NCBI GenBank assembly: GCA_046254885.1
Contig: CM100994.1
Span: 93,638,727 to 93,702,726, forward strand
DNA length: 64,000 bases
Source of the DNA: Sinanodonta woodiana
Taxonomy: Eukaryota
Direction of reading: 5' to 3'
Shown: one piece after another, positions 3,591-56,011 of the stretch
Numbering within the stretch: position 1 is the first letter of the stretch
How the letters are laid out: each line of letters starts with the position of its first letter
Made by a program: the position numbers and the translations under genes
Notes under the pieces: generated by a model
What the model saw: the letters and a program-made list of their open reading frames with translations, nothing else
Database searches by the model: none
What the model was told of the DNA's origin: nothing

Positions 3591-4212
3591 CGTCAAGTCA
3601 AAATATAGAAGAAAAAAAGGCGTAGAAACCAACTAGCTGTTCTAGGTTGGCCCTAGTCCTAGCGTACTCCTAACACCGCCTCAGATACATACATACATAC
3701 GTTTCCCGCCCTTATGAGGACATTCAATACCATTTAATTTTTCCGTCAAAACGCACTTCTACTTAAACATTCAATAATCTCTTTATCTTCCTGTTTCTTG
3801 TGGTCTAATTTAGACTAGTTTCAATTCAATAAATGTATGTTTTCTATTTTGTTATTATAGGTTCATTGAGATTGAAATTATATTGCCAACTGGTGGTGGT
3901 GGTTTGTACTGCATGTAAATCAGTCTGTGTGACTTCACACCAGTATGTTTTTAATTTTATGCTCAGCTGTTTTAAATAAATCTATTCTAAATATGTTTTA
4001 AAAGGCATATATTGTTATGCTGTTACATTTTTAATGCTATCCTGCTTTATATACTTTGTATAAATGTACCTTAACATGTATGGAAATTTTTGTGCTGTCA
4101 TGATATGTCGTGTGATTTTTGTTCTGTTGTATGAAATAAGTCGGTTTAAGAGCTCAAACGAGTTCATGTTATATGTTTGTTTCTATGTATATATTTCCGA
4201 CTCAAAATAAAA

Positions 4213-4720
<508 letters not shown>

Positions 4721-5747
4721 GAATGTGCTGTACTAGTTGTGCGGTTGGCAATCCAGATGTCATTTTCTATTCAAATAATGCTAAATATGAATTACGTTTT
4801 TTACACTGGTGTGGCACTTTAAAGTAAAACCTGCTTGAATGAGATTAAGTCTAACTCTAAGTTTGAAACTTGTATACTTTAAATTTATTAGCATTTCATA
4901 AATAGTTTTATGTATCGTTCTATTTCCACCTCATCTGTTCCTTGAACTTACATTTTAGTAGCGTTTTGCTATTACAACCACATATGTATCTTTATTCCAT
5001 TTATTAATTTAACAACTTTATAACTATCACTAATGTTAATCGCGATTCGCTACTCAAACGACCACATATGTTTTGTTGTTTTTTTTTTGTGGGCTTTTGT
5101 TGTTGTTGTTTGTATGTTATTTTGCTTTGGCGAGTTTTTTTTTTTTCTTTCTTCTTCTTCATTTTTTTCTCCCGATGCATATGTTTTAACACCACGCTTA
5201 CATAATGTTAATTGCATTTTGCAGCTCTGAGAATGGCCCCCCCCCCCTTTTTTTTTCTCTGTACATTTCCACATACCTTACCATTGAACTTAATGGTGAC
5301 CAAAGTGTTTGCTGTTCTGGCCTAGTTTCCCCACAACCACAACTACCCCCATCGTACTTTCACGAATCCTTGTAACACCACTCATGGATAGCAACATTCT
5401 TCTGATAAGCATCGACATCGATATTTGCTTTTTTTTTTCTGTCAGCTTCTAGACAGATTTGGACAATGCATAAACATTCTACTGATTGTCAGGCATTTTT
5501 AGTAATGTAATAAATCTGAAATATGCGCATTTGTTTATAGTTTTCCGCTGTACGGATTTCTTATATTGTTGTGATTACTAGTTTGATTATTGGTATCCAG
5601 TCCTGGGGAAATATTCATCAGACCGAAATAATTAGCCAATAAATAGGAACAAACGTCACGGTGTGAAGTTGTAGTGAGTTTCCACGGTGCCAAGGTTCTC
5701 GGTTGATGAATTCAGATCAGAATTACACGAGGATCCCTGTGTGTTCA

Positions 5748-5957: not shown

Positions 5958-6788
5958 TCAGCCGAAGATTTTGTCTAATCCGATACGATATCGTGTTCGA
6001 GGGTCGTGTATGTTTATCGTTATAAATCCATGCGGGGTTGATTTAGCATGACTGAAAAAGTTCATGAATTTATTATACTCCATGTCGGAACACCACGTTT
6101 GCCAAATATTTCTTAGCGTGTGTATATCAACGCCGTTAAATACACATAACAGATTACAGTTATCTCTGATCACTTTTGGTATTTGAGTATACCGCTGAGT
6201 CAAATAAAATACATCAGTGTTTTTATGTCTGCCTCTGGAAAATATCCTAGCGGGATTTTTTTGTTTATCTAACATTACATCACCGTATACTACCATGTTA
6301 TTTATGTTTTCGTTGAGGTCTTCCACAGATGGTGATTCGTCCATATCGGTTATAAACTCAATAACGTCATCGCCGGCAATTTCTTTCGCGGACTCATTGT
6401 AATCTTTTAACACTTGATAACAATGTTGGTCATCTGCGCTTGGCGCAACTAAATATAATTTATCCCATGTGGTAAATTTCATTATCAGCGATAACAGCAA
6501 CTGTGTTTTACCAGACCCGGATGGCAATACAATGATACATCTGATAGAATTTGGTAGCATTTTATGGTGTTTTACTGCTTGTTTTTTCTTTAACGCGGAG
6601 AAATCGATTATTTTCATTAGATATACTCGTTTATAATATAAACAAATTATGAATTTATACTGTGTAAAATGTAAGACTCGTACACCGACAACCGACCAAA
6701 CAACAATTGTTACAAAAAATAGTCGGACAGCAATTACTGGTAGGTGTAAAATATGTGGTATAAAAAATTTAGATTTAAAAAAAAACAT
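5958..6788 (-). CDS. FtsK/HerA-type (A32-like) DNA packaging ATPase
   Basis: 276-aa ORF with Walker A LPSGSGKTQLLL, Walker B MVVYGDVMLD and the RGRHKNTDVFYLTQRYTQIPKVIRDNCNLL motif typical of Polinton, virophage and adenovirus packaging ATPases. Four paralogs in the window. Confidence 0.7.
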   Translation of the reverse strand: MFFFKSKFFIPHILHLPVIAVRLFFVTIVVWSVVGVRVLHFTQYKFIICLYYKRVYLMKIIDFSALKKKQAVKHHKMLPNSIRCIIVLPSGSGKTQLLLSLIMKFTTWDKLYLVAPSADDQHCYQVLKDYNESAKEIAGDDVIEFITDMDESPSVEDLNENINNMVVYGDVMLDKQKNPARIFSRGRHKNTDVFYLTQRYTQIPKVIRDNCNLLCVFNGVDIHTLRNIWQTWCSDMEYNKFMNFFSHAKSTPHGFITINIHDPRTRYRIGLDKIFG

Positions 6789-7160
6789 GGAGGTGACATC
6801 GCTGCCAACTTAACTAAACTCACAGGATTACCATGGGCAAAGTATCCCGGTGAGAAGCACCTTCCGGGTTATCGTTATTGTGGTACGGGGAATCGATTAG
6901 ATATCAGACTCGATAACAACGATCAACCACGACGCGGTGAGGAACCGATAAATACTATCGATGAAGCATGTCGGATACATGATATCGCTTATCGTAGTGG
7001 TGATTTACAACAACGTCATCTCGCCGACGTAAACTTAATTCATGCGATAATTGCTATTCCTGATAAATCCCTCAGGGAAAAAATGGCGTCAACGATTATC
7101 AAGGTTGCCATGAAATGTAAATTGTTATTTGGAAATGGAGTCTCTCGTGCAAGTATATAA
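6649..7160 (+). CDS. C4 zinc-finger / secreted-PLA2 domain protein (parvovirus VP1u-like phospholipase A2); +1 frame break in a poly-A run
   Basis: N-terminus MNLYCVKCKTRT...GRCKICG (CxxC...CxxC). The PLA2 frame has YRYCGTGNRLD (YxGxG Ca-loop) and CRIHDIAY (HDxxY catalytic). The two frames join if the A9 run at 6777-6785 is read as A10. Confidence 0.65.
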
Positions 7161-7173
7161 TGGATCATCGTAA

Positions 7174-8135
7174 AGTAATTTTAATAGAAAAATATATTAT
7201 TCTCCTCGTGGATATTTTATGGGAAAATCTGCTATTGATAAATTAGCTAGCGCTGCAAAGGTTTCACGTGATATTGCCGCGGATTGGTTAGCTCGACAAA
7301 CAATATGGCAAATTTATCTACCTGGCCCTGCATCGATCAACTATGGATCATTTGATGTTCATGTTCCCAATGAGGTTCATTAAGCTGATATATTATATTT
7401 ACCGCATGATAAAAAGGGATTGGTTTATAAATATGCGCTAACAATTGTTGACGTAGCAAGTAGATACAAGGATGCATTTCCGTTATCAACAAAGTCATCA
7501 TCTGAGGTCGCTTCTGCATTCAAAAAAATATATCAGAATTGTCCTCTGCGCTGGCCAAATCTATTGCAGGCTGATCCTGGTAGAGAGTTTTTCGGTGAGG
7601 TGTCATCGTTGATGGCGCAACATAATGTTATAATTCGACGAGGACATACTGCAATGCATCGCGATCAGGCAATTGTTGAGCGATTTAATAGAACTCTCGC
7701 TGATAAATTATTTTATTATCAAACCGCGAGGGAATTTATTCAGCAAGAACGATTACGTGAATGGGTAAAACGACTTCCCGATGCTATCGCATCGATTAAC
7801 AATCAGGTTACTTCAGCGATAAATGATAAGCCGGCCATCGCGATCACAACAAAATATATAACTGGGAAAACAAAAAAGGTTTTAGATGATTTACCGCTAC
7901 CACGAAATGCCACCGTGAGATATTTATATGAACCTGGTGAGCTTGAAGTGGAGTTAGAAGATCAACGGATCCAACATGGAGTATTACAACACATAAAATC
8001 CACGATATGATATCATCGGCGCATCGTCGTACCTATTAAAAATTGGATCCAACTGCGCCACAACGAAGTTTAACTCGGGAAGAGCTTCAAGTTATCCCTG
8101 AGGACACTCAGTTGCCACCAACGAATTTAGCGTAA
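7174..8135 (+). pseudogene. retroviral-type rve integrase (DD35E) with N-terminal HTH and C-terminal SH3-like domain; in-frame TAA and C-terminal frameshift
   Basis: LTIVDVASRY ... QADPGREF ... 35 aa ... ERFNRTL. In-frame TAA at 7381-7383 where the paralog at 39862 has CAA (NEVHQAD). The C-terminal YKLDPTAPQRSLTREELQVIPEDTQLPP is in another frame. Confidence 0.8.
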
Positions 8136-8199
8136 CAGCGACGCGCTTAAGTTGACTAATCCGTCGTACTCGTGAAACGGCTAAGTATATTAAATTGTC

Positions 8200-9617
8200 T
8201 CATTCGATGAAATAATCTATGATCCACATAATCGTATCCGTGATAGTTAATCCTTGTGATGAGTGTATCGTGGTTGCGTAACCTAGCCTCCACGGAGAAT
8301 TTTTTGCGTTTATTGCATCTCGGGTCACAGATAGATCAACTTCAACGATATCATTTAACACAAGTGTTTGCTGGATATCTTGACCTGGTATGTCAACTAA
8401 AATATTTTGCCGTCGAGTATCTTTAGATGGATAGCACAGCGGAACCTTCTCGTGGCGAAATTTCTTCTCTTGAAAATAAAATAACTTTTTCACGATGATA
8501 TCTCTTGTGTTCTTCCTACTTGCTACAACCATATCTGATGGTTTCCACGTGTTATAAAATTCTTCCAACGACGTTGCTGAAATTACTTCACGTAATTTTT
8601 CTCTTTGATTGTTACTACTAGTGCATCTAATATTAGCTTTCAACGTGGTTAATTCTTCATCGAGGGATCTTCGGTCGATTGTCATCTCCTCATAGTAGTC
8701 AACGAAATTCTTTAACCAGCAATGTGGAGATATACTTCCAAATGGTGGTGGCTGACCATGATCTCCGCATAGTATTACAACAGTATTCTTTGTACTCAAC
8801 CAATCTAAAAACATTTTTAATATTTTTTTGAAACTAATCAGGCTTTATCCCATAAAAGTGCATCAGGAATATTCTTAGTTCCCATTCGTTCGGGTGACCA
8901 ATCACCGCCACTATATCTGAAAAAACTATGATAGGTACTTGCGCTAACTTCTTTCTCAGTGAAATCTCTTGCAAGTCGATGAGTTGGAGTTAACGCGATT
9001 AAGTTAGTTCCGCGAAATAACTCAATTACTCGTGTTGTTTTTCCACAGCCACCTGGACCATTTAAATATACTAGTCGGTGTCGCGCAATCGGATCGTGTG
9101 CACTTGGAGCTGTTGAAATTTTCTCGATGACATTGCTATGAAATTCAGGTTTATCTTCAACATCCGCGTGCTCTCGATATGCATGTAACAACTCATCCTT
9201 GATTCGCCATGTTCCCCATGTTGTACCATCTCCGAGATATTCTTTGACGGGGTCATGATGTATTTTATCGTAATAAAATGAGTCAGTGGCAACTCTTACC
9301 GCGATGTCAGGAAATCTGTTTACGTTACTGAGTAAATTTATTGTCGCGTACGCTAGCATGTATGATCGCAAATGTGTCCACTGAGGCATTTCATCGCTGA
9401 AATATTCTACGACGGTTCCAAACGGTTCTCCGGATAGTTCTACATTGGATTGTCTAGCGAATACTCCCTTGGTCACTGCATCATCGATGACAAATTTTAA
9501 TTCTCCAGGATCTAAAATCAATTTGGCCGTTTTACGTTTACGAGTTTCATCACCATTTTCATCACTAATATTTGCTCCCTGTGTAAACTTTCCAATTATA
9601 ATCCTACCTAAAGCCTT
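8200..9617 (-). pseudogene. replicase C-terminal part: superfamily-1 helicase domain (truncated 5' by the I-B insertion, one frameshift)
   Basis: VYLNGPGGCGKTTRVIELF (Walker A), LTPTHRLA, ILCGDHGQPPPF (motif III GDxxQ), TIHSSQGLTITDTIMWII (motif V/VI). Frameshift near 8815-8837. The ORF-track start at 9644 reads into I-B TIR sequence. Confidence 0.75.
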
Positions 9618-9882
9618 AGCAGCAGAGCAGACAGGACCGACCATTTTTATCCTGTCAATGAGACGGCTCCATCATCAATAACTACATAGAAGGCTCAGAT
9701 TAACAATCTGACAGTAAAAAAAGTGTCACGTACATGGCTGGGGTATGTTAGGGTACCCCGTGGACCTTATCAATGATGACACTGTAGTTGATGAGACGGC
9801 ACCATCATCAATAACTACATGAAAAATTCGAAGAATTTTCAATGATATATTCTGCAATTTCAAGGGAAACTATTATATATAA
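9618..9882. repeat. TIR-L of I-B / upstream region of the structural module
   Basis: Contains a 2x direct repeat tgagacggc[t/a]ccatcatcaataactacat and the palindrome ggggtacccc. Inverse complement of 26338-26589. Confidence 0.75.
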
Positions 9883-10359
9883 ATGCCAGTCGGAGAAGCT
9901 CAAATAACTCGATTAAAAAGAGAGCGCTTAGAGGCTATCAAGAAATTTCTTCCTGTCAGGGATGCATTTCGTGAAAATTTAAAACGACAACAACAACGTA
10001 CTGAGTTTACAATTGGTAGTTCAGAATTATTTAAACCGATTACTGAGGTAACTAAACAGGTTGGTACTGAGGTCGCTAAGGTTGGTACTGAGGTCGCTAA
10101 GGTTGGTACTGAGGTCGCTAAGGTTAGTACAGAGGTTGCAAACGTTGGTACAGATACCACTAAGATTGCATTAAGAACTAAACAAATGAAAAAATCTTTA
10201 AAAACTCTTCCAGGTGATATAATTGCTACACAACCTAACCCTGTTGATGTACAGCAAGTTGATATTATTCTACCGGCGCCTGAATTTATTGATGAACCAC
10301 AACAAGAAATACAAAAAAGTAAACAACGAAGAGATCTTGACCCTAAAAAAAATATTTAA
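9883..10359 (+). CDS. structural-module protein A (unknown; 4x tandem VGTEVAK repeat)
   Basis: 158-aa ORF. The 21-bp unit gttggtactgaggtcgctaag repeats 4x at 10059-10142. Paralogs at 36699(-) and 47270(+). Confidence 0.5.
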   Translation: MPVGEAQITRLKRERLEAIKKFLPVRDAFRENLKRQQQRTEFTIGSSELFKPITEVTKQVGTEVAKVGTEVAKVGTEVAKVSTEVANVGTDTTKIALRTKQMKKSLKTLPGDIIATQPNPVDVQQVDIILPAPEFIDEPQQEIQKSKQRRDLDPKKNI

Positions 10360-10373
10360 TGTTGATTTGATAA

Positions 10374-10916
10374 ATGATATTAAAATTTTTAGGGTTGATG
10401 ATAAAGATTTTGCTCGATTCATCGTTGATACATCTGAAAAGGAAGGATCAGCGAGATAGCTATTTAAATGATGATTATAAGGGCGCAGTAAGTAGGCAAA
10501 ATTGGCCTAAAAAGGTATATTTAGTAAAAATTGGTAAGTCGCAATTAAAACCAAATGATCAGAATTTGATAAAACTTGAAAAATTGATAAAACAGATACA
10601 AAATCCGCCAATAGCGGTTGTACCTTTTGTATCTCAACCGATTCCAAAAACAGATGATGATGGTCAAGATTTACCTAAAAAGCAAACATCGGGTGATGGT
10701 TATCATGGTGGTAATATACCTTGTTCACGGAGTATCATCGACGATATATCACGTCTAGATATTCTTATTGGTGGAAAACGAACTGGAAATAATTCTCCGG
10801 AATTGATCCATGAGGCAACTGAAATTTGTCAACGATTATTTCGTGGACATGTTATGGATATTGGTATGTATCGAAGTTTTGTTAATGGACTCATTGATGA
10901 TTATTATAGTGATTAA
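10374..10916 (+). CDS. structural-module protein B (unknown; conserved C-terminal GGNIPxSRSIIDDISRL...DDYYSD domain)
   Basis: 180-aa ORF. Paralogs at 36168(-) and 47736-48376(+). The II-a copy has an RG-rich N-terminal stretch. Confidence 0.5.
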   Translation: MILKFLGLMIKILLDSSLIHLKRKDQRDSYLNDDYKGAVSRQNWPKKVYLVKIGKSQLKPNDQNLIKLEKLIKQIQNPPIAVVPFVSQPIPKTDDDGQDLPKKQTSGDGYHGGNIPCSRSIIDDISRLDILIGGKRTGNNSPELIHEATEICQRLFRGHVMDIGMYRSFVNGLIDDYYSD

Positions 10917-10955
10917 TCACCACGATTAATATTAGATAGATAGTATTTTAATATA

Positions 10956-11306
10956 ATGATTGTATATCGTAGTATGAATCGAGCTAAACCAGTTCATGTT
11001 ATAAATTCACGATTACCAGTTTATAAATTAATGTACGGAGATGAACTCGGTGATGTTGTTACAGGTTTATTTACAAGAATTGCTCCGAAAATACTTCCAA
11101 TCGGAAAAGAGTTGGCGTCAAAAGCTATTGGGGTAATCGGAGATACTGCCGCAAAAGATACTGGTACATATTTGTATAATTTCGCAAAAGAAAAACTTAC
11201 CTCGTTGATGAAACCAAAGAAACCCACTAAAGTTGTATTACCGTCGACGGATGAAATGTCAACATATATTGCCAATGAAATTAATTCACTTGCAAGAAAA
11301 AATTAA
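10956..11306 (+). CDS. structural-module protein C (small basic protein, unknown)
   Basis: 116-aa ORF with NSRLPVYKLxYGDxLGDVVTGLFTR conserved in paralogs at 35733-36099(-) and 48480-48927(+). Confidence 0.45.
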   Translation: MIVYRSMNRAKPVHVINSRLPVYKLMYGDELGDVVTGLFTRIAPKILPIGKELASKAIGVIGDTAAKDTGTYLYNFAKEKLTSLMKPKKPTKVVLPSTDEMSTYIANEINSLARKN

Positions 11307-11359
11307 AAACTGTCGGTTCAGGTTTGAAATTATCGATTTAAATCGTTGGCGTTAATATA

Positions 11360-24153: not shown

Positions 24154-25162
24154 TCAATTCATTGGTGGCAACTGAGTGTCCTCAGGAATAACTTGAAGTT
24201 GTTCTCGAGTAAAACTTCTTTGTGACGCAGTAGGGTCCAATTTGTAATACGTTGGCTTATGTGCCGACGATACCGTATCGTAGATTTGATGCGTTGTTGT
24301 ACTCCATATCGGATCTGTTGATCTTCTAACCCCGCCTTCAAGTTCACCGGGTTCATATAAATATCCTACTATGGCATTTCGTGGTAATGGTGCATCGTTG
24401 GAAACTCTTCGATTTTCACCTTTAGATTTTTTATTTATATATATTTTTGTGACCGCGATGGCCGGCTTATCATTTATCGACGATGTGATCTGATTGTTAA
24501 GTGACGCAATAACTTCAGGAAGTCGTTTACCCATTCACGAGATCTATCTTGTTGAATAAATTCTTTTGCTGTCTGATAATAAAATAATTTATCAGCGAGA
24601 GTTCTATTAAATCGTTCAACAATCGCCTGATCACGATGAATTGCAGTATGTCCTCGTCGAATTTTAACATTATGTTGAGCCATCAACGATGACACCTCAC
24701 CGAGAAACTCTCTACCAGGATCAACCTGCAATAGTTTTGGCCAACGTAGAGGACCTTTTTGATATATTTTTTGAACGCCTCAGCAACCTCCGATGATGAT
24801 TTTGTTGATAACGGAAATGCATCCTTGTATCTACTAGCAATATCAACAATTGTTAACGCATACTTGCAAACTTTTCGTTGTCGGAAATTATTCATAATTT
24901 TGTCATGCGGTAAATATAATATATCAGCTTGATGAACCTCATTGGGAACATGAACATCAAATGATCCATAGTTAATCGATGCGGCCTAAGGTAGGTAAAT
25001 CTGCCATATTGCTTGTCGAGTTAACCAATCCTCGGCAACCTTATGTATGAGTTTAGCCATATTAGCTAATTTACCAATAGCGGATATACCCATAAAATAT
25101 CCCTTAGGAGAATAATAAACTTTTTCCATGGAAACTCTTTGAGTTTTAACTTTACTCGCCAT
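24154..25162 (-). pseudogene. rve integrase of I-B (fragmented)
   Basis: N-terminus MASKVKTQRVSMEKVYYSPKGYF, core KYALTIVDIASRY..VDPGREF..ERFNRTL, C-terminus LPRNAIVGYLYEPGELE...YKLDPTASQRSFTREQLQVIPEDTQLPP, spread over 3 frames. Confidence 0.75.
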
Positions 25163-25294
25163 TATACACTTACACGGGAAATTCCATTTCCAAATAACAA
25201 TGTACCTTTCATAGCGGATTTAATAATCGCCGACGCCACGTTTTCCCTAAAAGATTTATCTGGGATGGCATTTATCGCATGAATCAAGTTGACA

Positions 25295-25641
25295 TCAGCA
25301 AGATGACGTTGTTGTACATGCTTCATCGATAGCATTTATAGGTTTTTTTCCGGGATTAGGTTGATCATTGTTGTCAAGAGTGATGTCTAATCGTGTTCCT
25401 GGTCCGCAATAACTATATCCTGGAAGGTGTTTCTCACCTGGATATTTTCCCCATGGAAGTCCTGGTAAACCACTTAATTTGGCGGCGATGTCACCACCTC
25501 GCATTTTTTTTTAAAATCTAAATTTTTTTGTGCCACACGTCGCACAGTTACCAGTAAGTGCATTCCTATTATTTTTGTAACAGTTGTTGTTTCGTTAATT
25601 GTTTGTGTACGCGCCTTACATTTCACACAATATAAATCCAT
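25295..25641 (-). pseudogene. zinc-finger/PLA2 protein of I-B (frameshift plus in-frame TAA)
   Basis: MDLYCVKCKARTQ..., then YSYCGPGTRLD, PINAIDEAC; disrupted. Confidence 0.55.
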
Positions 25642-38487: not shown

Positions 38488-38653
38488 ATATAAAGCCTGA
38501 TTTTAAGATGTCAATTTGTCAATCCAGAGTGGTCAAATCCTACAAAGCTTTTCCAGGCATCGAATCGTTAATTTAAGCCTTCCTCCAAATAGCAAAAAAA
38601 TAAAATGATGCCCCTGCGTCCGAGATAGGCTGCTCAGGGTAATCCTATGGATT
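38488..38653. repeat. left TIR of II-a (outer ~70 bp missing)
   Basis: ataaagcctgattttaagatgtcaatttgtcaatccagag...ccgagataggctgctcagggtaatcctatgg is mirrored at 53930-54130. Confidence 0.6.
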
Positions 38654-39313
38654 TTAAGTGGATATTTGATCAAGTCTGATACGATATCGTGTCCTAGGGT
38701 CATACAAATTAATTGTAACAAATCCGTGTGCGGTCGACTGAGCATGACTGAAAAAGTTTTTAAATTTATTGAAGTCCATGTCGGAACACCATGTCTGCCA
38801 AATATTTCGTAGCGTATGTGTATCAACGCCATTGAATACAGCAAGAATATTACAGTTATCCCTGATTACTTTTGGTATTTGAGTGTACCGCTGAGTGACA
38901 TATATCACATCAGTGTTTTTATGCCTGCCTCTGGAAAATATCCTAGCAGGGCTTTTTTGATTGTCTAACATTACATCATCGTATACGACTAAATTATTTA
39001 CGCTTCCATCGAGGTCCTCAACGGATGGCGCATCATTGATATCAGTTATAAACTCAATGACGTTTTCTCCTGCAATCTCTGAAGCGTTTTCGTTAAATTC
39101 TTTTAACACTTCATAGCACCGTTGATCATCTACGGACGGGGCAACTAAATACAACTTGTTCCACCTGATCCATCTCATTTTTAAATTAAGTAGCAATTGC
39201 GTCTTGCCGGATCCAGATGGTCCAATGATAATCATCCGAACAGAGTTTGGTAACGCTGCGACGTGTTTTATTGGTTCTCTTGTTTTAGTCGCTGAAAAAT
39301 CAATTACATTCAC
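38654..39313 (-). CDS. FtsK/HerA-type packaging ATPase (intact, 219 aa)
   Basis: IIGPSGSGKTQLLL, LVVYDDVMLD, RGRHKNTDVIYVTQRYTQIPKVIRDNCNIL. Confidence 0.75.
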   Translation of the reverse strand: MNVIDFSATKTREPIKHVAALPNSVRMIIIGPSGSGKTQLLLNLKMRWIRWNKLYLVAPSVDDQRCYEVLKEFNENASEIAGENVIEFITDINDAPSVEDLDGSVNNLVVYDDVMLDNQKSPARIFSRGRHKNTDVIYVTQRYTQIPKVIRDNCNILAVFNGVDTHTLRNIWQTWCSDMDFNKFKNFFSHAQSTAHGFVTINLYDPRTRYRIRLDQIST

Positions 39314-39330
39314 AACGCTATATATAAATT

Positions 39331-39859
39331 ATGGATTTATATTGTGTGAAGTGTAAAACGCGTACTAGCAGAAATGATGTGACGACAATTACAACTAAAA
39401 ATAATCGAACAGCACTTAATGGTAAGTGTGCGACATGTGGTATAAAAAAATTAGATTTGTTTCCTCTGACAGCATCAAGGGTGTTTAAAAAAAACAACTC
39501 GGAGTTGATATTGCAGCCAAATTAGCAAAACTCACAGGAACCCCATGGGAAAAGTATCCCGGAGAAAAGCACCTTCCAGGATATAGCTACTGTGGCCCGG
39601 GAACACGATTAGATATCAGACTAGATGAACAAAATCAACCCCGACCTGGCGAGAATCCGATAAATGCTATTGATAATACGTGTCATGCTCATGATGTTGC
39701 TTATAAAAGTAGCAATTTGCAGCAAAGGCATATCGCTGATGTAAAATTAATTCATGCGCTAAATGCTATTCCTGATAAATCCTTCAAAGAAAAATTGGCT
39801 TCATGGTTGGTAAAAACAGCTATGAAAGGTAAGTTGGTGATGGGCGCTAATTATAAATA
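39331..39859 (+). CDS. C4 zinc-finger / PLA2 protein; +1 frame break in A8 at 39487-39494
   Basis: MDLYCVKCKTRT...GKCATCG, then in the next frame YSYCGPGTRLD (YxGxG) and CHAHDVAY (HDxxY). Contiguous if the A-run is read one base longer, the same site and direction as in the I-A copy. Confidence 0.65.
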
Positions 39860-39861
39860 AT

Positions 39862-40796
39862 ATGGAATATATTTATTATTCTCCGAGAGGATACTGGAGG
39901 GGTAAAGCTGCAATTAGTAAACTCGCAAGTGCCGCAAGGGTAAAAAAGACAACTGCGGATAATTGGTTATCCAAACAAGCTATTTGGCAAATTTTTCTAC
40001 CACGCCCTAAACAAATCAACTTTTCGCATTTTGATGTTACTGTACCTAATGAAGTTCATCAAGCTGATTTATTATTTTTGCCACATGATAACGGTTACAA
40101 ATACGCGCTAACAGTAGTTGATGTAGCGAGTCGATACAAACAGACAGAGCCATTGAAAACAAAGTCGGCATCTGAAGATGCTTCTGCATTTGAAAGGATT
40201 TATCGTAGAGGTCCTCTGCGCTGGCCAAATCTACTACAGGTTGATCCTGGTAAGGAATTTCAAGGTGTTGTTGCATCTTCAATGAAACATCATAATGCCG
40301 CCATCAGACGAGGACATACTGCACTACATCGTGATCAGGCAATTATTGAACGATTCAATCGGACTCTTGCTGAGCGGTTATTTGGATATCAATACGCAAA
40401 AGAATTCATTCAGGATAAAAGATCTCGTGAATGGGTTAAAAGGTTACCAGGAGTAGTTGCAGCTCTAAATAATGAGATTACCAGAACAATCAATATGAAA
40501 CCCAGCGACGCAATAAAAAAAGTATATACCCGGACAACCACGAGATGGTTATTCCCAGCCAATTCTTGGTAATGTCACTGTGAGATATTTATACGAGCCA
40601 GGAGAGCTTGAAGGTGGTACAGCGAGGGCTACTGATCCTATTTGGAGTGTTACATAGGATATCTACTATAACACGATCAACTGGTACACCTCCAATCTAT
40701 AAGTTGGATTCAACTGCACCTCAGCGGGGTTTTACACGAGAACAACTACAAGTGATTCCTGACGATACTCAATTGTCTCCATGCGGCCTTAACTAG
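39862..40796 (+). CDS. rve integrase (DD35E; 236-aa ORF intact through the core; C-terminal SH3-like region frameshifted)
   Basis: LTVVDVASRY..VDPGKEF..35 aa..ERFNRTL. C-terminal VRYLYEPGELEGG and YKLDSTAPQRGFTREQLQVIPDDTQL are in other frames. Confidence 0.8.
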
Positions 40797-41193
40797 CGCC
40801 TTTTCGTCTATTACACTCAAGATATGTCAACATCACATTATCGCGTATATGCCCGAGATTGTTATTTTTTCTGTCTACGGTAAATTGACGAGGGTCTTTA
40901 TCCGAATACTGCCAGCGCATTATACAATTGCAACTCGCACAGTGATTATTATGTTGCTGTTTCAAAACAATTATAAATTCAGCATCAATATCAAATTCCC
41001 GTTTATTTTTTTATCCTGTTGTTTGTATCCAGAGAGTTTTTTATTCATAATTTTAATATCGAAAATGCTGGTATTTTTAATATCACTGATTGTGGTTTCT
41101 GCGTCATCATCGAAAACAATTCTTCGAAGTTAATTTAATCGCCGCACTCTGGATACTGCAAGATATACTAAATTCGACCACTCAATGCGATTA

Positions 41194-44100
41194 TCAACTA
41201 TCCAAACAATTGTATCCGTGATGATTAATCCCTGCGAAGAGTATTGTTGCTGCGTAACCTAGCGTCCATGGTGATTTATCAGCACGCAACGCATCTTCGA
41301 CAGCACTAATATCAACCAGTACAATATCATTTAATACTAAAATCTGTTTTTCTGTCAACCGGCCTGGAACTTCAACTTCAATATTTTGTCGCCGTGTGTC
41401 CGAAGGCCTGTAACACAACGGTACTGGCACCGTTGGAAATTTTTCTTTATGCAACTCGAATAACTTTCTCTGAAGTGTATCTCTGACTATTTTTCTACTT
41501 GCGATTATCAAATCATTTGGTCTCCACGTTTCCCAAAAGTCATTCATGGTAGTTTCTGGAATTATTTCACGCGCTACTTCACATTGAATTCTATCGGGTT
41601 GTAATCTGATTAGTTTCTTGAATTCTCGTAATGGTTCATCAAGTGCTCTATGGTCAGTATCGATTTCTTCATAATAGTCAACAAACCCTTTCAGGTAATC
41701 ATGTGGACTCTTGCCAACAAATGGTGGTGGTTGACCATGATCGCCACACATTATCACTTTTGTATTCGAACGCAACAACCAATCAATAAACATTTGTAGC
41801 ACATCTAGCGAAACAGTGCATATTACATCCCATATAATGATTTCAGGAATAAATTTCTCGCCCATTCTTTCAGGGGTCCACTCATCACCTTTATATCTAA
41901 AAAAGCTGTGATAAGTACATGCATCTACGTTTCGTTGTTTTCTCTCTCTCGCTAGTCTGTGAGTCGGTGTAAGCACAATCATATTTGCACGATCTCGATA
42001 TAATTCTATCGCACGTGTTGTTTTCCCTGACCCGCCACATCCGTTTAAATAAACTGTTTTATACCTACAAATCGGGTCAGATACCACTGGTGCATTAGAC
42101 CACTTTGATAAATTATCACCGCGTAAGTAATTATCGGCCATCGGGACATCTGCTGATTTGAAATAATCACGTCGTATTTCATTTTTAATTCTCCATGTGC
42201 CCCAACTCTCATTTGGATTAGTAAATTCAGCCACTTCGTTTATGTAATTGCGGTCAATATACATTGAATCAATTGCAACTCTAACCGCAGTATTAGGAAA
42301 TCTATTTATCATTGAAAATAAATTGATAGAAGCATAACCCAGCATAGATGCCCTCAAATGTGCATACGGAGAACTTTCACCGTCGTTGTAAGTAACAATT
42401 GTACCTAACTTTACCCCATTGGACAAGAAAGCTGTTTTACAATTCGCATATCTATTTTTTGCTACTGCATCTTTGATTACAAAATCGTATTCGGCGTCAT
42501 CTATAATCAGCCGTGAAGAATATCTTTTATAATCGTAGTTTTCCCCCCTTGAGTAAATTTGCCAATTATTCTCCTGCCGAGATCTTTTGCTTCGATGTTT
42601 CGTTGGTTGAATATCTTTTTGGATCACTCAATGATATATTCTTCGTTGCAATCTCGAAGATGTTTTCTTGATTCGTCAATTATACTATCAAGACGCTCTG
42701 GTTATGGCAGCCAGACATCAGTCTGCGCTCGATATGATATAATTGCCTCGCTGACAATCAACGAAATTTGCATTTTACAATCAATCATATATCGCAATAA
42801 CACTATTGGCAGTCATATTTTTTCAGACATATGTCTACCAATCCAAACATAACAACACGGATGCAGTCCAGTTGCGAATTCAAATGATACTACTTTAGCA
42901 AATCCGGTTAAATCAAAATCAGGTAATGGTCCATTAATAGCAACACGAGTCATTTCATGTACTGGGTGACCAAATCGTTTGTAATACTCAGCACACTCCC
43001 CATACCCGAGGAAACTCCCTGGATAACAAGCAACCATATCAACGGAAATCATACTATCTCGGTCGTATTTATTATTCCATAAACCACCGTGATTAAGTTT
43101 CAAAAAGCTTGATTGTACATCTGGTAAAAAATCTCTGCGTGTTGGTTTTCACGCATTTTTCTTTCTTGCAGCATGGGCTGCAATCGATGGAATTGTAAAA
43201 CAATTTGTCAGTAATTGTTCGTCTGATTTTCCATCATTGAATTCCATGGCGAGTTTTTTCATCCGTGTATGGAGATCTTCAGTGCGGTATAATTCACCGT
43301 TAGGTCTTACAAATTGATTGAATCCACACTCTTCATCTTCAGCACTGCGAAGTAACCACACTGACACAGGGTCATTTTTACACGCACACGCAATAGCATC
43401 GAATAGTCTTTCTTCCGTGAGAAGTCCATCCCTGGTGAATTCTTTAGGGATAGACTTCAATGTTCTATCCCGTGGGAATATTGTAATCGTGGGTGTCCAA
43501 GCGTGTTTGTTATGATCAATAATTTTGATTGGAGCTCCGTTTTTATTGTATTTCAATTCGTATAACACCTCAGCGGTAATCGTTATAACGGTTATTGGAA
43601 ATCTTAGCAGTGTTTCTAATTTAGATATATCAGTAATAGTTACTACATTCTCTTTCACAGTTAAATCCCATTCATTAATTTTCTTACGCCGCAGCTCAGT
43701 CAATTTATTTCCACAGAGTGCATTTGTAAAATATTCCATTACTCGTGCTGCTACACAATTCAATGAAGCCCCTGACGAGAGTTTCATTTGTGCTAGTTTT
43801 CCAATATCAGGCTTCTTACTCAACGGGTATATCCCATAAACAACTGCTGTTTCAGGATAAGCTCGTTCATAGCATGGTCTGTCAATTCCAGTTTACAAAC
43901 CCGGATTGGAATCACGGCTAACAGTTAATGTTTTCTTGTCGCTAAGAATTGGAACTAATTTGTCTCTTATAATCCAATCACCTCATTCCAATTCCGCATG
44001 GATAATAAATTTCACTCTAAAAAATACTTTTTACTGTCAAGTTGTGATTACATCGCAGCAGCAGTTTCATCATTCATGGTGGCATCAACAACGCCATCAA

Positions 44101-49018: not shown

Positions 49019-50449
49019 TTGAATATAATGTTTAAACGAACAGTCGACACTGCGTTTGACATAGACGCACCAGTACGTAAATATGATTCAGTTCGTGATT
49101 ATCAGTGTTATTCCTATCATGCTATGCAACCTAACTTACGATCACGAATTGAACTTCAAGTCCAGGATACCAGTAAATACTTTTTGCCATGTGAAGTATT
49201 TATTGAAGTCGAAGGAGAACTAGTAACAAATGTTGCAGCCGATACACCATATGATAATAACCAAAATATCCGAGTTGGATTTGTCAACAATGGTATCATG
49301 GCGCTATTTGAAAGTGCAAGATATCTCATTGATGGAAAAGACATTGAATCAATCGACCGTGAGGTTGATATTGCAACAACAATAATCGGACTAGCAAGAT
49401 ATTCTGATGATTATACAAGGTCAGTTGGTCCGTCTATGATGTTTGCCAAGGATACTTCTGATCAACCTGACCACCTTCAGTACATCAGTTAACTCCATAA
49501 GACACTTCAGTTGCTAATCAACAAGAAGCAGCTAATCCAGAATGCCGAGCTAGACCAGGTGCGGATTTCGACATTATAAAAGGTGTTAACGAAAATTACA
49601 ATCTAGGATTTGCAACACGAAAGGCAACATTACATGGACAACGCAGACAGTTTTCATGTGCGATTCCGCTTCATCATATATTTGGATTCTGCAGAAATGT
49701 CAGAAAAGTCATTTATGGAGCAAAGCATACAATCGCGCTAGTACGAAAAGGTGATGACAATGATGCAATCTGGCGTGCTGCTGGTGTTGCTGCTGGTAAA
49801 GTTGTTTTAAGAAAATTAGCGCTGTGGATGCCAGTAATGACCCCGTCAATTACCGAAGAACAACGGTTACTTTCATTTATGGACACAGGAGGTAAATCAT
49901 TGCTAAGTTGGCTAACAACAACGACTGATACCAAGGATGATGATGCTGCAGGGACTTTTACATGGCACTTAGCAGCAAAACAAGGTGTTTCAGCTCCACG
50001 TCATATAGTTATTGCGCTACAAGATCGTGCACGATTAAATTCCCAAGAACACAGTCATATGATATTTAATCCACTCGGTGTTAGTGAGGTTTCGCTGAGA
50101 ATAAATGGCCAGCAGGAACCAACCGAGGATATACAACTCGATTATGGTCAAAACCAGGTTGCACGTGTGTATCATCGGATGCTGTCATTTATGGGTCGTG
50201 ATCAAAATGTCGATACTGGTTAACAAATATCGCAACTTGATTTTAAAAGCCTATATCCGATATATACTTTTCACTGGAACATCTTGATTTAATAAGACAA
50301 TCTGTCGTTGACATACACTTTAGAGCTCGTATTGCCCCTGCTGGTGTTAATAATAGAGCGGTTGCTGTCATTCTCAGTGATAAATCAATGCTGTTGGAAG
50401 GGGTTGGTGGACGAATGAGACTTATTGATGCACCAGTGGAAAATATGTA
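49019..50449 (+). pseudogene. candidate major capsid protein (3-4 ORF pieces)
   Basis: 49019..49492, ~49560-49830, 49828..50223 and 50240..50449 are collinear with the II-b copy 62606-64000. Confidence 0.4.
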
Positions 50450-50518
50450 GTTGAAATGGAAAATATTTCAGATTTTTACAATTAGATCAATTGAAAGCAT
50501 AAATGATTTTACAATAAA

Positions 50519-51425
50519 ATGCCATATAATGTTGTTAGTGTCTCACTGACCGATGGCCAGGTCAAGAAATTGCGATCAAAGTCAGCTAAAGAATGTGGAA
50601 CCACAATAACGCTAAAGCCGTCACAAATGACTGGTGGTACACATATAATCTCATTAACGGATCGTCAAATCAAACATTTCAATGATGCAATGAAGAATAA
50701 AAAAGGTGTTCAGGTAGATTTTTCAAAGGCTGCAATCGATAATATGATAAAATCCGGTGGTATATTTCCGTTGTTAGCTGCTATGCCAGCGCTAATTGCA
50801 GCGGCTTCCCCAGCGGTGGCGAAAGCAGAGGCGCTAGGAGCTGTTGGTACTGCTGCAGGGATGGCACTAAAAAAGGCAACCGGTCAAGGATATAAAAAAA
50901 GTGAAAGGGTTTAAGACTACCAGGAACTCCGCATACATGGTGCAAGGGAAGCGGATTAAGAATACCAGGAATGGTTTATTAGCAAAATCCTACGGATTTG
51001 GGCCTATTGTTCCCATGTCTAATTTTGATTTAATTGATGCCGCTAGATCATTATCGCTGAAAAATTTCAGAGGAGTATTTATGAGAGATCAATTACCGAA
51101 AATTCCTAATGACGTTGAAACCGGCATAATCAATCTTGATAATTCCACAATGGGAACTCATTGGGTTGCATACGCGATTGATCCGCGTGGGATTGTCTAT
51201 TTTGATTAATATGGGTTAGCACCGCCGAAAGAATTTATGCGGTATATAACAAAACTAAAAAAAAATCCTGTTTTCTATTCCACGCTGCCAACACAACAAT
51301 TAAACGACCCGCCGATATGTGGCCGTGAAGTGTTAAATGTACTCGCGGAGATATCATTGAAATCCTCAAAACCACCTCATGTGGTTGTAAATGAATATAC
51401 CAATGGGAAGTTTTTAGAGAAATAA
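50519..51425 (+). pseudogene. adenain-like protease (frameshift in A7 at 50894-50900; in-frame TAA at 51207-51209)
   Basis: GTHWVAYAIDPRGIVYFD then a stop, then YGLAPPKEF...TQQLNDPPICGREVLNVL. The paralog has TCA (Ser) at the stop position. Confidence 0.65.
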
Positions 51426-51439
51426 AACATATCTTAATA

Positions 51440-51680
51440 ATCATGATTGATATTTGGGGACGACCTCTTTCAACAGCAGAAAAACCCAGCACGGAAACAC
51501 GAGCGCTTGATTCCATCAAGGATGTAAAAAAAAATAATAATCGAAGACGAAATCGCTGAGACGTTGAACTTAGCAAGTGTTGACCCGGGAGAAATAGTTA
51601 TATTTCAGGATCGCCAGGGTAAATTTAAATCCAGTAATGTGTCCCTGGATGTTCTTTTAACAAAAAAAACCACCATTCAG
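51440..51680 (+). pseudogene. protein D remnant (internal deletion)
   Basis: MIDIWGRPLSTAEKPSTE... and NLASVDPGEIVIFQDRQGKFKSSNVSLD match the N-terminus of 60811-61626. The rest is missing. Confidence 0.4.
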
Positions 51681-51687
51681 CAATATT

Positions 51688-51960
51688 GTGTACACGCTTG
51701 AATCCGGATCATTTGTTTGGGCTGTTACAAGTAATATACTACCTTACACTGCAGCCGTCAAGGGTATTTATCGATTAACACTAGTGTCGCCAACTCGGTG
51801 TAATATATCATCGCCGAGTTCATATGGAGACAATAACGTGATATCAACAATCATTGACAAAGATGCAACTGAACGGTTTACAATAACAAGCACAGACGCT
51901 CATTTAGCCAGGGCATCAGTGACATGGTATATAGAATCTGTAGCAGATCTAAGCAAATGA
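51688..51960 (+). CDS. protein E (90 aa)
   Basis: Nearly identical to 60425-60751. Confidence 0.45.
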   Translation: MYTLESGSFVWAVTSNILPYTAAVKGIYRLTLVSPTRCNISSPSSYGDNNVISTIIDKDATERFTITSTDAHLARASVTWYIESVADLSK

Positions 51961-52065
51961 AAAATCTTTTAAGAGTTTCGAAATCGAAAACACTATCATA
52001 TAAAATATAAAATGACTTCATCGTCACCATCATAATATCGCTATGATACCATCACGAAATTTTCA

Positions 52066-52542
52066 ATGGAACTCAAAGCACTAGCTGAAGAGTACGCAAT
52101 AAAAATTAAAAAATACAGCAGGAGAATTACCGTCATTGACGTTACAGTGTACTCAGTAAGCGGTGTAATGGCAGGAACTGGTATTATACTATCTTCAGTG
52201 ACAATGATAGCTCCGATTGCAGTTCCAACCGCTATCTCTGCGGTGACAACAATTGCCGGGGTTGCAAATGCAATCACGAAGAAATTATCATCATGTGCTC
52301 AGGAAAAACTTAACGAGTATACAGTAAAACATCAAATTGCATCAAACGGCTACACTCAATTATCCTCGCTGATATCATCGATTGATGACTCATTAATTAC
52401 CGACGATGAATTTTCCGCGATGGTTCGTATTTATGATTCCGCTATATCGAAATTAGAAACTATAAACAATAATAATAATGTCATCAGTAGAAATACTTCA
52501 ACGAATAGCAACAAATACAACTCCGGTACAAACAAAGCATGA
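52066..52542 (+). CDS. membrane protein F (intact, 158 aa)
   Basis: MELKALAEEYAIKIKKYSRRITVIDVTVYSVSGVMAGTGIILSSVTMIAPIAVPTAISAVTTIAGVANAI; one predicted TM helix. Confidence 0.5.
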   Translation: MELKALAEEYAIKIKKYSRRITVIDVTVYSVSGVMAGTGIILSSVTMIAPIAVPTAISAVTTIAGVANAITKKLSSCAQEKLNEYTVKHQIASNGYTQLSSLISSIDDSLITDDEFSAMVRIYDSAISKLETINNNNNVISRNTSTNSNKYNSGTNKA

Positions 52543-53478
52543 TATCAATAACATCAACAAACCCGGAATTTAGCGTGAACTTCCCCTCGCCGGTTTCAGT
52601 GAGCGAGATCGCGCTGGCAAAATTACGAGTATATCATAGTTGGCCTAATATTAGATCAGTAGCATTCGGCGGTCAACAACCCAACAATTCACTGGTGTTT
52701 GCACACAAGAATAAATCCGATGGGACACCAGACTGGCAGATTATTTCATTACCAACGGGGTCATACCAAATTGAACAAATCGATAAAGAATTTCAGCGTA
52801 GGATAAAATCAATTACTGGAAAAGAATCAAAAATTTCTATTAGCGTCCATGAACTGACGCTGTCATCTACAACTGAGATATCCACGGAGGGATACGTCGT
52901 AGACATTTATCGAAGCTCAATAAGAACCGTATTAGGTTGGCCTGAAAGACCACCTCAAAAAGAAACCGTTGATATACCCGAACCTGAAAAATTTAATTAT
53001 ATCACTAATAAAATAGCACCTGATAATCCAATAAAAAGTCATCACGATTATGAATTCAACAGATTCATGGTCGCGGTAAAAACATCCAACCTCCCGCCCA
53101 TAGATTATTATCGGATTAACTCAGTCGAGATTAATGAAAATTGTGTAGCTATGACTAATGATCTTGCATTGTTGTTGGTGTCATTGAGATCTGGTGAACT
53201 TTCCAGAGATGAATTTATCAACATCATAGAAACATGTAATAAAATCTTAGACGATGCAAAAATATTTCATGATAAGGTGATTTCTGATATTTATAATAGA
53301 CTTAATACTTCTAGTGCTAGTGACCTTTCTACCAGAACAAAATAATTTTTTGCCACACAATTTAATATCCGCGTAGAGGATATACCTAATTTTAAGTTGC
53401 CGGACTATCCGGTTCCCTCGATGAAACAATCTCTCAACGATGCCGTCTGGGAAGGTTTAAAAAAAACAACACGATAAT
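52539..53478 (+). CDS. candidate minor capsid protein G (C-terminal frameshift near 53340)
   Basis: STNPEFSVNFPSPV...LRVYHSWPNIRS. The C-terminal FATQFNIRVEDIPNFKLPDYP is in the next frame. Confidence 0.4.
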
Positions 53479-53511
53479 TGGTTAAAACGTCAGCAACCAC
53501 AAACAAATATC

Positions 53512-53859
53512 TTGACACACAATAATGCTCTAGATGGCACCGGTAGACATATTGCGCCAGGAAATGCGAATATTTCATCAGTGATTGCACTTAATTTAGT
53601 ATGTGATGTCATCAAAGGAAGCTATCACATTAATCTAGAACAATCAAATCAGGCCCAGCAAGGATATATTTTATACTCATTTGCACCAACAGCGCCACCT
53701 GGATTCTTAATTGTTGAGGACCCGGTTAATCCTGTATATATGCGATGTCATAATAAATCATTAACGAGAATCAATTTCCGGGTTACTGACCAGGCAAATA
53801 ATTTGATTGATCTACGCGGCGAAGTGTTAGCGATTAGTCTATTTGTGAATCGTAAATGA
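53512..53859 (+). CDS. protein H (115 aa)
   Basis: QGYILYSFAPTAPPGFLIVEDPVNPVYMRCHNKSLTRINFRVTDQANNLIDLRGE. Confidence 0.45.
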   Translation: MTHNNALDGTGRHIAPGNANISSVIALNLVCDVIKGSYHINLEQSNQAQQGYILYSFAPTAPPGFLIVEDPVNPVYMRCHNKSLTRINFRVTDQANNLIDLRGEVLAISLFVNRK

Positions 53860-55524: not shown

Positions 55525-56011
55525 CTTTCGTTATAGCGTTTAGGTCTTTTCCTAGTTTCTAAAGCATCTTCGCCTCTTCGCGCTATTGACCGTTTGTTGA
55601 CACTCCTTAGCCCCACCCTAGCATATATGGCTAATTAGGACTTTGAGGTAACGCCACGTTTTCCTATTAAAAACAAGGTGTTTTGTTTATAAGGTATTAC
55701 GTTCTCCATTAATATAATAGTTTAGTATAATAAGTGAACTTTGCAGGGCTGCTAGTTGCTTTGCTCATGACAGCCTTTTTCTTTCTTTTTTTTTTAAATT
55801 TATTATAAAAGCTACGGAGTAAAAACGTAATTCAATCTCTACCTATGCTGCGCGGGGCATGGGTTCCGTTTCCTTCTTAGCTTGAAGCTTGGGACTTTAC
55901 TCCTAATTCTTTTAACTAGATGTCCATGAGTTAGTGTCTACCCCCCCCCCCCGTTTGTACAATGCTTTATTGAGTTTGTTTAATTTTAAAGAATCATTAA
56001 GGGTCTTCTTA

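Follow-up and report, generated by a model that had tools for sequence, protein, structure and literature searches.

Poly-A runs between the zinc-ribbon and phospholipase A2 frames of a Polinton-like virus gene: a candidate -1 recoding site in Sinanodonta woodiana elements and their metagenomic relatives

The DNA analysed here is a window of 64,000 nucleotides from the genome of Sinanodonta woodiana (assembly GCA_046254885.1, contig CM100994.1, positions 93,638,727 to 93,702,726 of the forward strand), within which all window coordinates below are counted. It contains diverged copies of an integrated Polinton-like virus, two of which, I-A and II-a, carry a gene whose two domains, a DUF5679 zinc ribbon and a phospholipase A2 (PLA2), are one base out of register: the zinc ribbon lies in frame 0 and the PLA2 domain in frame -1 (Table 1). 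The zero-frame open reading frame (ORF) of I-A has 54 codons, begins with an ATG at 6649 and encodes two CxxC pairs (CVKC...CKIC). Both domains matched Pfam profiles in I-A and II-a, respectively, with E values of 2.5e-10 and 5.9e-11 for PF18930 (DUF5679; 40.8 and 42.8 bits against a gathering cut-off of 27) and of 4e-11 and 7e-12 for PF08398 (Phospholip_A2_4; 43.4 and 45.9 bits against a cut-off of 23.9). Addition of a single A gives a contiguous ORF in each copy, reading ...LKKKHGGDIAAN... in I-A and ...FKKKQLGVDIAAK... in II-a. Protein identity between the copies is 68% in the PLA2 domain and 70% in the zinc finger, DNA identity is ~70%, and the synonymous divergence (dS) of the PLA2 domain is 0.79. 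An earlier note on this DNA had singled out an A9 run at 6777-6785 and an A8 run at 39487-39494 as the places where one extra A would join domains lying in adjacent frames. These positions and run lengths are exact, and the arrangement is confirmed in both copies by the frames and the Pfam matches; the interpretation that accompanied it is partly supported. In particular, what had been called a +1 frame change is a deficit of one base, equivalent to a -1 ribosomal shift or to one A added in the mRNA.

A search of 5.8 billion proteins recovered 79 relatives of the zinc-ribbon-PLA2 protein. Many of them are single ORFs of 160-190 amino acids that carry both domains together in frame, and both halves therefore belong to one protein. 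The family junction consensus is ...CxxCG[TI]KKFRF-(K-rich linker)-GGDIAAKL...PW.KYPGEKHLPGY.YCGPGTRLD. The PLA2 frame of I-A reads KKFRFKKKHGGD, with the family-conserved KKFRFKKK, already upstream of the A9 run, where the zinc-finger frame reads KNLDLKKN; the missing base of I-A thus lies in the A6 run at 6762-6767 and not in the A9, and the CG[IT]KKFRF of the relatives requires an A7 where I-A has this A6. The II-a linker at 39453-39485 reads KKIRFVSSDSIKGV in the PLA2 frame and is homologous there to KKFRFVSLDKVKGV of the in-frame relative L036, so that the primary break of II-a is a missing T after its A7. By homology, then, the two copies are not broken at the same run, contrary to what had been proposed. 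An extra A in the A9 of I-A would also restore the ORF, although the homologous break is in the A6, and a -1 shift on the long run of II-a (A_AAA_AAC) would bypass the TAA at 39486-39488 and give a fusion. The A6 plus A9 layout of I-A is repeated in L031, a metagenome contig that is separated from I-A by a dS of 0.82. Pairs of copies that might be read as carrying compensated indels (-1 and -2; II-a versus L001, L031 versus L034) are explained equally well by a single deletion from an in-frame ancestor and are not used as evidence. The PLA2 domain of I-A alters the conserved YCGPGTRLD to YCGTGNRLD, with T for a nearly invariant P and N for a nearly invariant T. Both window copies have KLTG in place of the family KLPG ahead of the conserved PW (6800-6815 and 39515-39530), and II-a has GVD in place of the family GGD. 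These residue changes are consistent with relaxed constraint in the window copies.

DNA of 22 close relatives was taken from public metagenome assemblies, and the junction was compared among those with an A-run of at least 8 bases. The PLA2 domain lies in the -1 frame in ten of these contigs, with a run of A8 (L001, L005, L006 and L010), A9 (L034 and L035) or A10 (L002, L009, L012 and L032); three others are in frame (L030, L033 and L036) and one is +1 (L008). This 10:3:1 tally excludes the window copies and L031, which are -1 too. A subset with a long run that was chosen by PLA2 motifs, blind to the junction state, gave five contigs in the -1 frame, none in frame and one at +1. In every -1 copy the run has the in-frame length minus 1, whether it counts 8, 9 or 10 bases, and the linker lengths recorded for a subset of the -1 copies (71, 74, 80, 83, 101 and 113 nt) are all 2 mod 3. 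The -1 runs of 8-10 are uninterrupted, whereas in the in-frame lineages the lysine stretch is mostly shorter or interrupted. The comparison of further copies at this site, which the earlier note had advised, thus found the -1 state in 10 of 14 long-run relatives; within the window, the third copy, I-B, not named in that note, is dead with other lesions. No relative was found among IMG/VR viral contigs.

In each of the ten -1 contigs both domains are unbroken from end to end. In the five in which the PLA2 frame was checked upstream (L001, L002, L006, L009 and L012), stops occur right up to the run and no ATG follows until near the C-terminus, so separate initiation of the PLA2 domain is impossible in these copies. 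The ATG that opens the PLA2-frame ORF of I-A and II-a (MWYKK...) is a by-product of the ACA/ATA-TGT-GGT of the second CxxC. Purifying selection acts in both frames. Pairwise ratios of nonsynonymous to synonymous divergence (dN/dS) of the PLA2 domain among -1 copies are mostly 0.04-0.16, at dS values from 0.35 to >2. L005 and L010 have an identical junction, TTTCGATTTATTTCTTTAAAAAAAAGCGA, which implies that the -1 state predates their split; of the 22 positions at which their PLA2 domains differ, 18 fall on the third codon position in the -1 frame, and their zinc-finger differences are third-position-biased in frame 0. With the conceptual fusion protein of L005 as query, no in-frame protein of >78% identity was found among the 5.8 billion proteins. 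Every match in the range of 86-94% identity is an ORF for PLA2 alone; these ORFs form clusters with 14, 14, 6 and 1 members, gathered from JGI, ENA, NCBI and Logan, and several start with MWYKK..., the -1 reading of CG[IT]KK.

The surroundings of the -1 copies are largely intact. The 5.6-kb contig L006 carries, besides its -1 copy, an integrase ORF of 346 amino acids and a helicase ORF of 1162 amino acids that has an in-frame A9 of its own, and across nine -1 contigs ~8 kb of flanking coding sequence is free of frame breaks, with L009 as the exception. Lesions were found among the relatives with other junction states: the ATPase of the +1 contig L008 is frameshifted, the in-frame L030 has QD for HD and a frameshift in PLA2, the in-frame L033 (A13) lacks the first CxxC, and L014, which is broken at the first run (A6 only), has a frameshifted ATPase and looks dead. 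These patterns speak for -1 copies that still function or did so until recently.

The explanation towards which we somewhat incline is that a Polinton-like virus lineage maintains a -1 recoding site, operating through RNA-polymerase slippage or through ribosomal -1 slippage on A_AAA_AAN. The stronger proposition, that this lineage obligatorily uses poly-A slippage to make a little zinc-ribbon-PLA2 fusion while its default product is the zinc ribbon alone, we regard as evenly poised. The gene specifies a single protein, in which a DUF5679 zinc ribbon is followed by a short linker rich in lysine and then by a PLA2 domain of parvovirus type. According to the proposed scheme, several lineages would have kept an arrangement in which the linker holds 8-10 uninterrupted A and the PLA2 domain follows in the -1 frame, and default decoding would yield a zinc-ribbon-only product, with the zinc-ribbon-PLA2 fusion as a minority product. 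Two routes to the fusion can be envisaged: (i) RNA polymerase may add one A on the run (transcriptional slippage); (ii) ribosomes may slip by -1 at the in-phase A_AAA_AAN heptamer. The predicted trans-frame junction peptide would be, for example, FISLKKKRGGDIAAK, and the rationale would be one of dosage, the lipase fusion being kept as a minor species. We infer the slippage or frameshifting itself, its efficiency, the polymerase or ribosome step and PLA2 dosage as a controlled trait from the sequence comparisons. The breaks in the window are, on this reading, features inherited by decaying viral relics and not assembly errors. Slippage or frameshifting had also been among the explanations offered in the earlier note; it gains from a -1 state kept under purifying selection, from the lack of a PLA2 start of its own and from intact neighbouring genes, but its direction is -1 and not +1.

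Features of the run bear on both routes. A slippery heptamer of the form X_XXY_YYZ stands in zero-frame phase in all -1 relatives, as A_AAA_AAC (I-A, II-a, L001, L002, L031, L034 and L035) or as A_AAA_AAA (the rest). It does not discriminate between the mechanisms, because the loss of one A from a lysine run creates it automatically. On mammalian ribosomes A_AAA_AAC ranks with the most shift-prone -1 heptamers, and runs of 9 A/T allow efficient polymerase slippage in bacteria (PMC5009743); ribosomes have also been described to slip or slide on poly-A (PMC4363877). All second-run -1 copies have A8-A10, and I-A (A9) and II-a (A8) are alike in this; such homopolymers roughly match the RNA:DNA hybrid in length (8-9 nt or more). 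We lean slightly to polymerase slippage rather than ribosomal slippage or sliding on poly-A, because the runs have at least 8 bases and no 3' stimulator was seen.

Several observations weigh against a maintained recoding site. The homologous breaks of I-A and II-a fall outside the long run, and both copies lie in degraded elements. In a neighbour-joining tree the -1 state is scattered over at least 5 clades among in-frame relatives, so that it was either gained repeatedly or reached by repeated decay; many family members, including more distant ones, are plainly in frame, and one of them, L036, is an intact in-frame copy with A9, so the family as a whole does not require the shift. Downstream of the run no structure was found that is conserved or unusually stable (RNAalifold -12.7 kcal/mol, with a positive covariation term and one compensatory pair; no explicit pseudoknot search was made), and single-sequence z-scores downstream range from +0.5 to -2.0 with no common structure, which leaves a canonical stimulated -1 frameshifting signal unsupported. 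RNA polymerase II is not known to slip efficiently on A8-A10. Homopolymers are mutational hot spots, moreover, and much of the pattern could be imitated if endogenous copies that died recently had each lost one base in parallel. This last point leads to the main competing account, in which the gene was always in frame in the virus and the A9-A11 run is the first to lose one A in dead endogenous copies after integration. The window copies are clearly degrading, as the earlier note had allowed in listing decay among its explanations; in-frame relatives occur in every major clade, L036 with its A9 included; the ATPase of L008 is frameshifted at a 9-base homopolymer, direct evidence of homopolymer indels in dead copies; L011 has two indels, and the integrase of L009 breaks at an A-run; and all first-run breaks (I-A/L031, L014/L011 and II-a) are deletions, suggesting a deletion bias. 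A random walk in run length, however, would not predict the skew of 10:3:1 (5:0:1 in the junction-blind sample) towards one phase. The junction is identical in L005, L010 and the P0009 cluster, which places the -1 state before their divergence; even so, the dN/dS of their PLA2 domain is 0.035 at a dS of 0.35, and the L005/P0009 lineage has no in-frame member among the 5.8 billion proteins. The run is uninterrupted in all -1 copies despite dS values of >0.5, and the ~8 kb of flanking ORFs in the -1 contigs is free of lesions, with other A8/A9 runs there in frame. The data from the relatives therefore favour a maintained -1 site over decay, and we consider recurrent homopolymer deletion unlikely, although it is to be taken seriously.

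A reversible switch at the DNA level, in which a hypermutable A-run switches the PLA2 domain between on and off within the replicating virus population while assemblies capture the prevailing (off) length, would fit the run lengths of 8, 9, 10 and 13 among close relatives, the occurrence of in-frame, -1 and +1 states and the repeated state changes across the tree. Such phase variation should give off states of both n-1 and n+1, but n-1 dominates ~10:1, and L005, L006 and L010 keep their state and run length at dS values of 0.3-0.5, which makes it quite improbable. A systematic one-base under-call of homopolymers during sequencing or assembly, also among the earlier suggestions, is very improbable, even though both window breaks can be repaired by one added A in a homopolymer. 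The same deficit recurs, in runs of 8, 9 or 10, in independent contigs from several unrelated projects whose names (NODE_x_cov_y and k141_x, from which alone the assembler is deduced) indicate SPAdes- and MEGAHIT-style short-read assemblers, with coverage up to 14.7x; the long ORFs of these contigs contain further A8 and A9 runs that keep the frame; and the homologous break of I-A is at an A6, which is not routinely miscalled on any platform. It is hardly credible that the zinc ribbon and the PLA2 domain are two separate genes made from overlapping ORFs, or that a small intron joins their frames. The PLA2-frame ORF of I-A and II-a does open with an ATG, but after that ATG stops precede the run in L001, L002, L006, L009 and L012, and II-a has the TAA at 39486-39488; independent PLA2 initiation was rejected, the frame being closed upstream and lacking an ATG. 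An intron was rejected as well: the in-frame relatives show one continuous protein, and homologous coding sequence abuts the run on both sides, leaving no room for an intron of 3n+2.

The PLA2 domain belongs to the same family (PF08398) as that of the parvovirus VP1 unique region and shares with it the YxGxG calcium loop and the HDxxY catalytic motif. A PDB sequence search gave only marginal matches, with E values of ~1, to the VP1 N-terminus of adeno-associated virus, aligned over LPGYxYxGPG...HDxxY. In contrast to the parvovirus enzyme, the domain is fused here to a zinc ribbon and not to a capsid protein, and it resides in a double-stranded DNA (dsDNA) element of Polinton-like type. Parvoviruses keep the PLA2-bearing VP1 minor relative to the PLA2-less forms; they do so by alternative splicing or leaky scanning, whereas a frame change at an A-run is proposed here. 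A PLA2 in such an element had been thought unusual in the earlier note, but parvovirus-like PLA2 domains in Polinton-type elements are already known (Yutin et al. 2013, PMC3671162), as is the PLA2X of adintoviruses (Starrett et al. 2021, PMC8502044). As in those elements, the PLA2 gene adjoins virion and packaging genes in an integrating dsDNA element; PLA2X, however, has a C-terminal adenovirus pX-like domain where the window gene has an N-terminal DUF5679 zinc ribbon, and the window element has a superfamily 1 (SF1) helicase-type replication gene and no identified pPolB. Coral polintoviruses and mavirus-related elements commonly carry DUF5679 (PMC11131425, PMC13215967), and the protein search found the DUF5679-PLA2 fusion to be abundant in metagenomes. 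The adintovirus paper reports no slippage or programmed frameshift, its single mention of a frameshift concerning decay mutations in pseudogenes (PMC8502044), and a literature search on Polinton-like viruses returned nothing on frameshifting or slippage.

Known cases of transcriptional slippage (Thermus dnaX with T9, Ebola GP with A7, potyvirus P3N-PIPO with GA6 and the poly(A) tracts of endosymbionts) share with the present gene an A-run between two frames, across which one added A yields a fusion. The polymerase here would be host RNA polymerase II or that of a helper giant virus, unlike the bacterial RNA polymerase or viral RNA-dependent RNA polymerase of those systems. Slippage run length corresponds approximately to the length of the RNA:DNA hybrid (PMC5009743, PMC4552492). 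As regards the ribosomal route, it may be compared with established users of the same heptamer. A_AAA_AAC serves -1 frameshifting in mouse mammary tumour virus gag-pro and in astrovirus ORF1a/1b; the junction described here differs in that no 3' stem-loop was detected and in that the heptamer is embedded in a longer run, which programmed ribosomal frameshifting does not need. Another dsDNA virus gene thrown out of frame by a homopolymer indel is the thymidine kinase gene of herpes simplex virus, in which a 'savior' indel in a G-string still allows some full-length product through low-level frameshifting (PMC5009743). That is a drug-selected mutant, whereas here diverged natural lineages share the out-of-frame state.

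Table 1. Features of the zinc-ribbon-PLA2 gene copies and their neighbours in the window
Feature	Positions	Strand	Details
I-A packaging ATPase (Pox_A32 type)	5964-6617	-	Divergently transcribed from the zinc-ribbon-PLA2 gene
I-A zero-frame ORF	6649-6813	+	DUF5679 zinc ribbon, then out-of-frame tail; stop TAA 6811-6813; PF18930 E 2.5e-10
I-A PLA2 ORF, 135 codons, -1 frame	6753-7160	+	YCGTG and IHDIAY motifs
I-A first A-run, A6 (6762-6767), inside in-phase heptamer A_AAA_AAT	6762-6768	+	Homology-mapped frame break
I-A second A-run, A9 (6777-6785), plus C	6777-6786	+	In-phase slippery heptamer A_AAA_AAC at 6780-6786
I-A rve integrase	7192-8129	+	Broken: TAA 7381-7383 (CAA in II-a), frameshift near 7947
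I-B third copy, pseudogene	25162-25641	-	1-nt deletion in zinc finger; TAA before A9; 35-nt deletion removing HD motif
II-a zero-frame ORF	39331-39525	+	Zinc ribbon (CVKC...CATC), linker in non-homologous frame, A8, stop TAG 39523-39525
II-a first run, A7 (39444-39450), then TT	39444-39452	+	One T fewer than L001 and L036, placing the linker in the PLA2 frame
II-a A8 (39487-39494)	39486-39495	+	PLA2 frame closed by TAA 39486-39488; in-phase A_AAA_AAC at 39489-39495
II-a PLA2 domain, -1 frame	39489-39860	+	YCGPG and HAHDVAY motifs; stop TAA 39858-39860
II-a integrase (+, two frame changes) and SF1 helicase-like gene (-, three frame changes)	39862-42995		Decay of element

The window elements are identified as an integrated Polinton-like virus by their gene set: a Pox_A32-type packaging ATPase (E 3e-11), an rve integrase, an SF1 helicase-like protein, a double-jelly-roll capsid protein (DJR-like_dom, E 6e-15) and a weak Ulp1-like protease (Peptidase_C48, E 0.0024, below the cut-off). 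PF00665 was recorded on the intact integrase orthologue of L003, the window fragment remaining under the threshold (E 3.6e-4). No PolB domain was found in the scanned ORFs, which were part of the ORFs of the window only; an SF1 helicase-like gene is present instead, in fragments. Its intact counterpart in L006 (1648-5136, minus strand) encodes the 1162-amino-acid replication protein, with an SF1 core (AAA_19/AAA_30, UvrD_C_2) and a Cys/His-rich C-terminal segment. Because no PolB domain was seen in this protein, the elements may replicate unlike classical Polintons. I-A and II-a are decaying endogenous viral relics. Decay is part of the local picture, since both copies sit in elements with a frameshifted integrase and helicase; in I-A the integrase also has the TAA at 7381-7383, and the helicase is split. 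The same TAA, opposite a CAA at 40060-40062 in II-a, was considered as a sign of stop-codon reassignment; no subset of stop codons gave a gain in ORF length, and ordinary decay accounts for it.

When the window was compared with itself, one kind of element emerged in several copies that have diverged and are in part inverted. Two modules are common to elements I and II, one with the ATPase, zinc-ribbon-PLA2, integrase and helicase genes and one with the capsid and protease genes plus others (matches 5968-9296 versus 26323-22968, 9857-20211 versus 37161-28184 and 5968-9072 versus 38664-42055). Relative to the second module, the first is inverted in II compared with I, and I-B is an inverted partial duplicate containing the first module only. 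A Mutator-like element (MULE) transposase ORF (21742-22470, minus strand, E 1e-13) lies between I-A and I-B, which suggests that a Mutator-like element inserted into the viral array; this ORF and the nested degraded copies indicate a repeat-rich eukaryotic region. A third, more distant element family, part of which lies inside the window, forms an inverted pair (49061-53856 versus 64000-58519, ~80% identity) that includes a double-jelly-roll capsid gene at 62606-63385; the zinc-ribbon-PLA2 gene was not detected by tblastn in the part inside the window. An inverted repeat of ~245 bp with 90% identity and arms ~180 bp apart (56011-56253 versus 56679-56436) and a separate 160-bp repeat with 87% identity (38489-38644, at the left edge of II-a, versus 54140-53974) may be element termini. 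The window also holds a perfect tandem array at 4214-4720, with a period of 52 bp and shifted copies that are 100% identical, which overlaps ORFs at 4173-4721 and 4177-4827.

As far as literature searches show, recoding has not previously been described in this virus group, in which the proposed site would be the first such signal. Gene callers split the gene into a zinc-ribbon ORF with a nonsense tail and a PLA2 ORF without a start, and dozens of such entries stand in public protein collections; if the recoding is real, surveys of endogenous viral elements would score possibly intact copies as broken. The signal would be compact (<20 nt, with no obvious stimulator) and easy to clone, and would suit the study of slippage on A8-A10 in eukaryotic cells. 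Should the recoding proposal prove wrong, the locus would still be a clean natural case in which a homopolymer is the first site to fail as an endogenous virus decays, and fails in one direction. If it is right, Polinton-like viruses would join the few eukaryotic dsDNA viruses known to rely on recoding, and the arrangement suggests that the dosage of a membrane-lytic lipase would be governed by how often slippage occurs; dsDNA viruses would then have a counterpart to the parvoviruses, which keep their PLA2-bearing VP1 minor.

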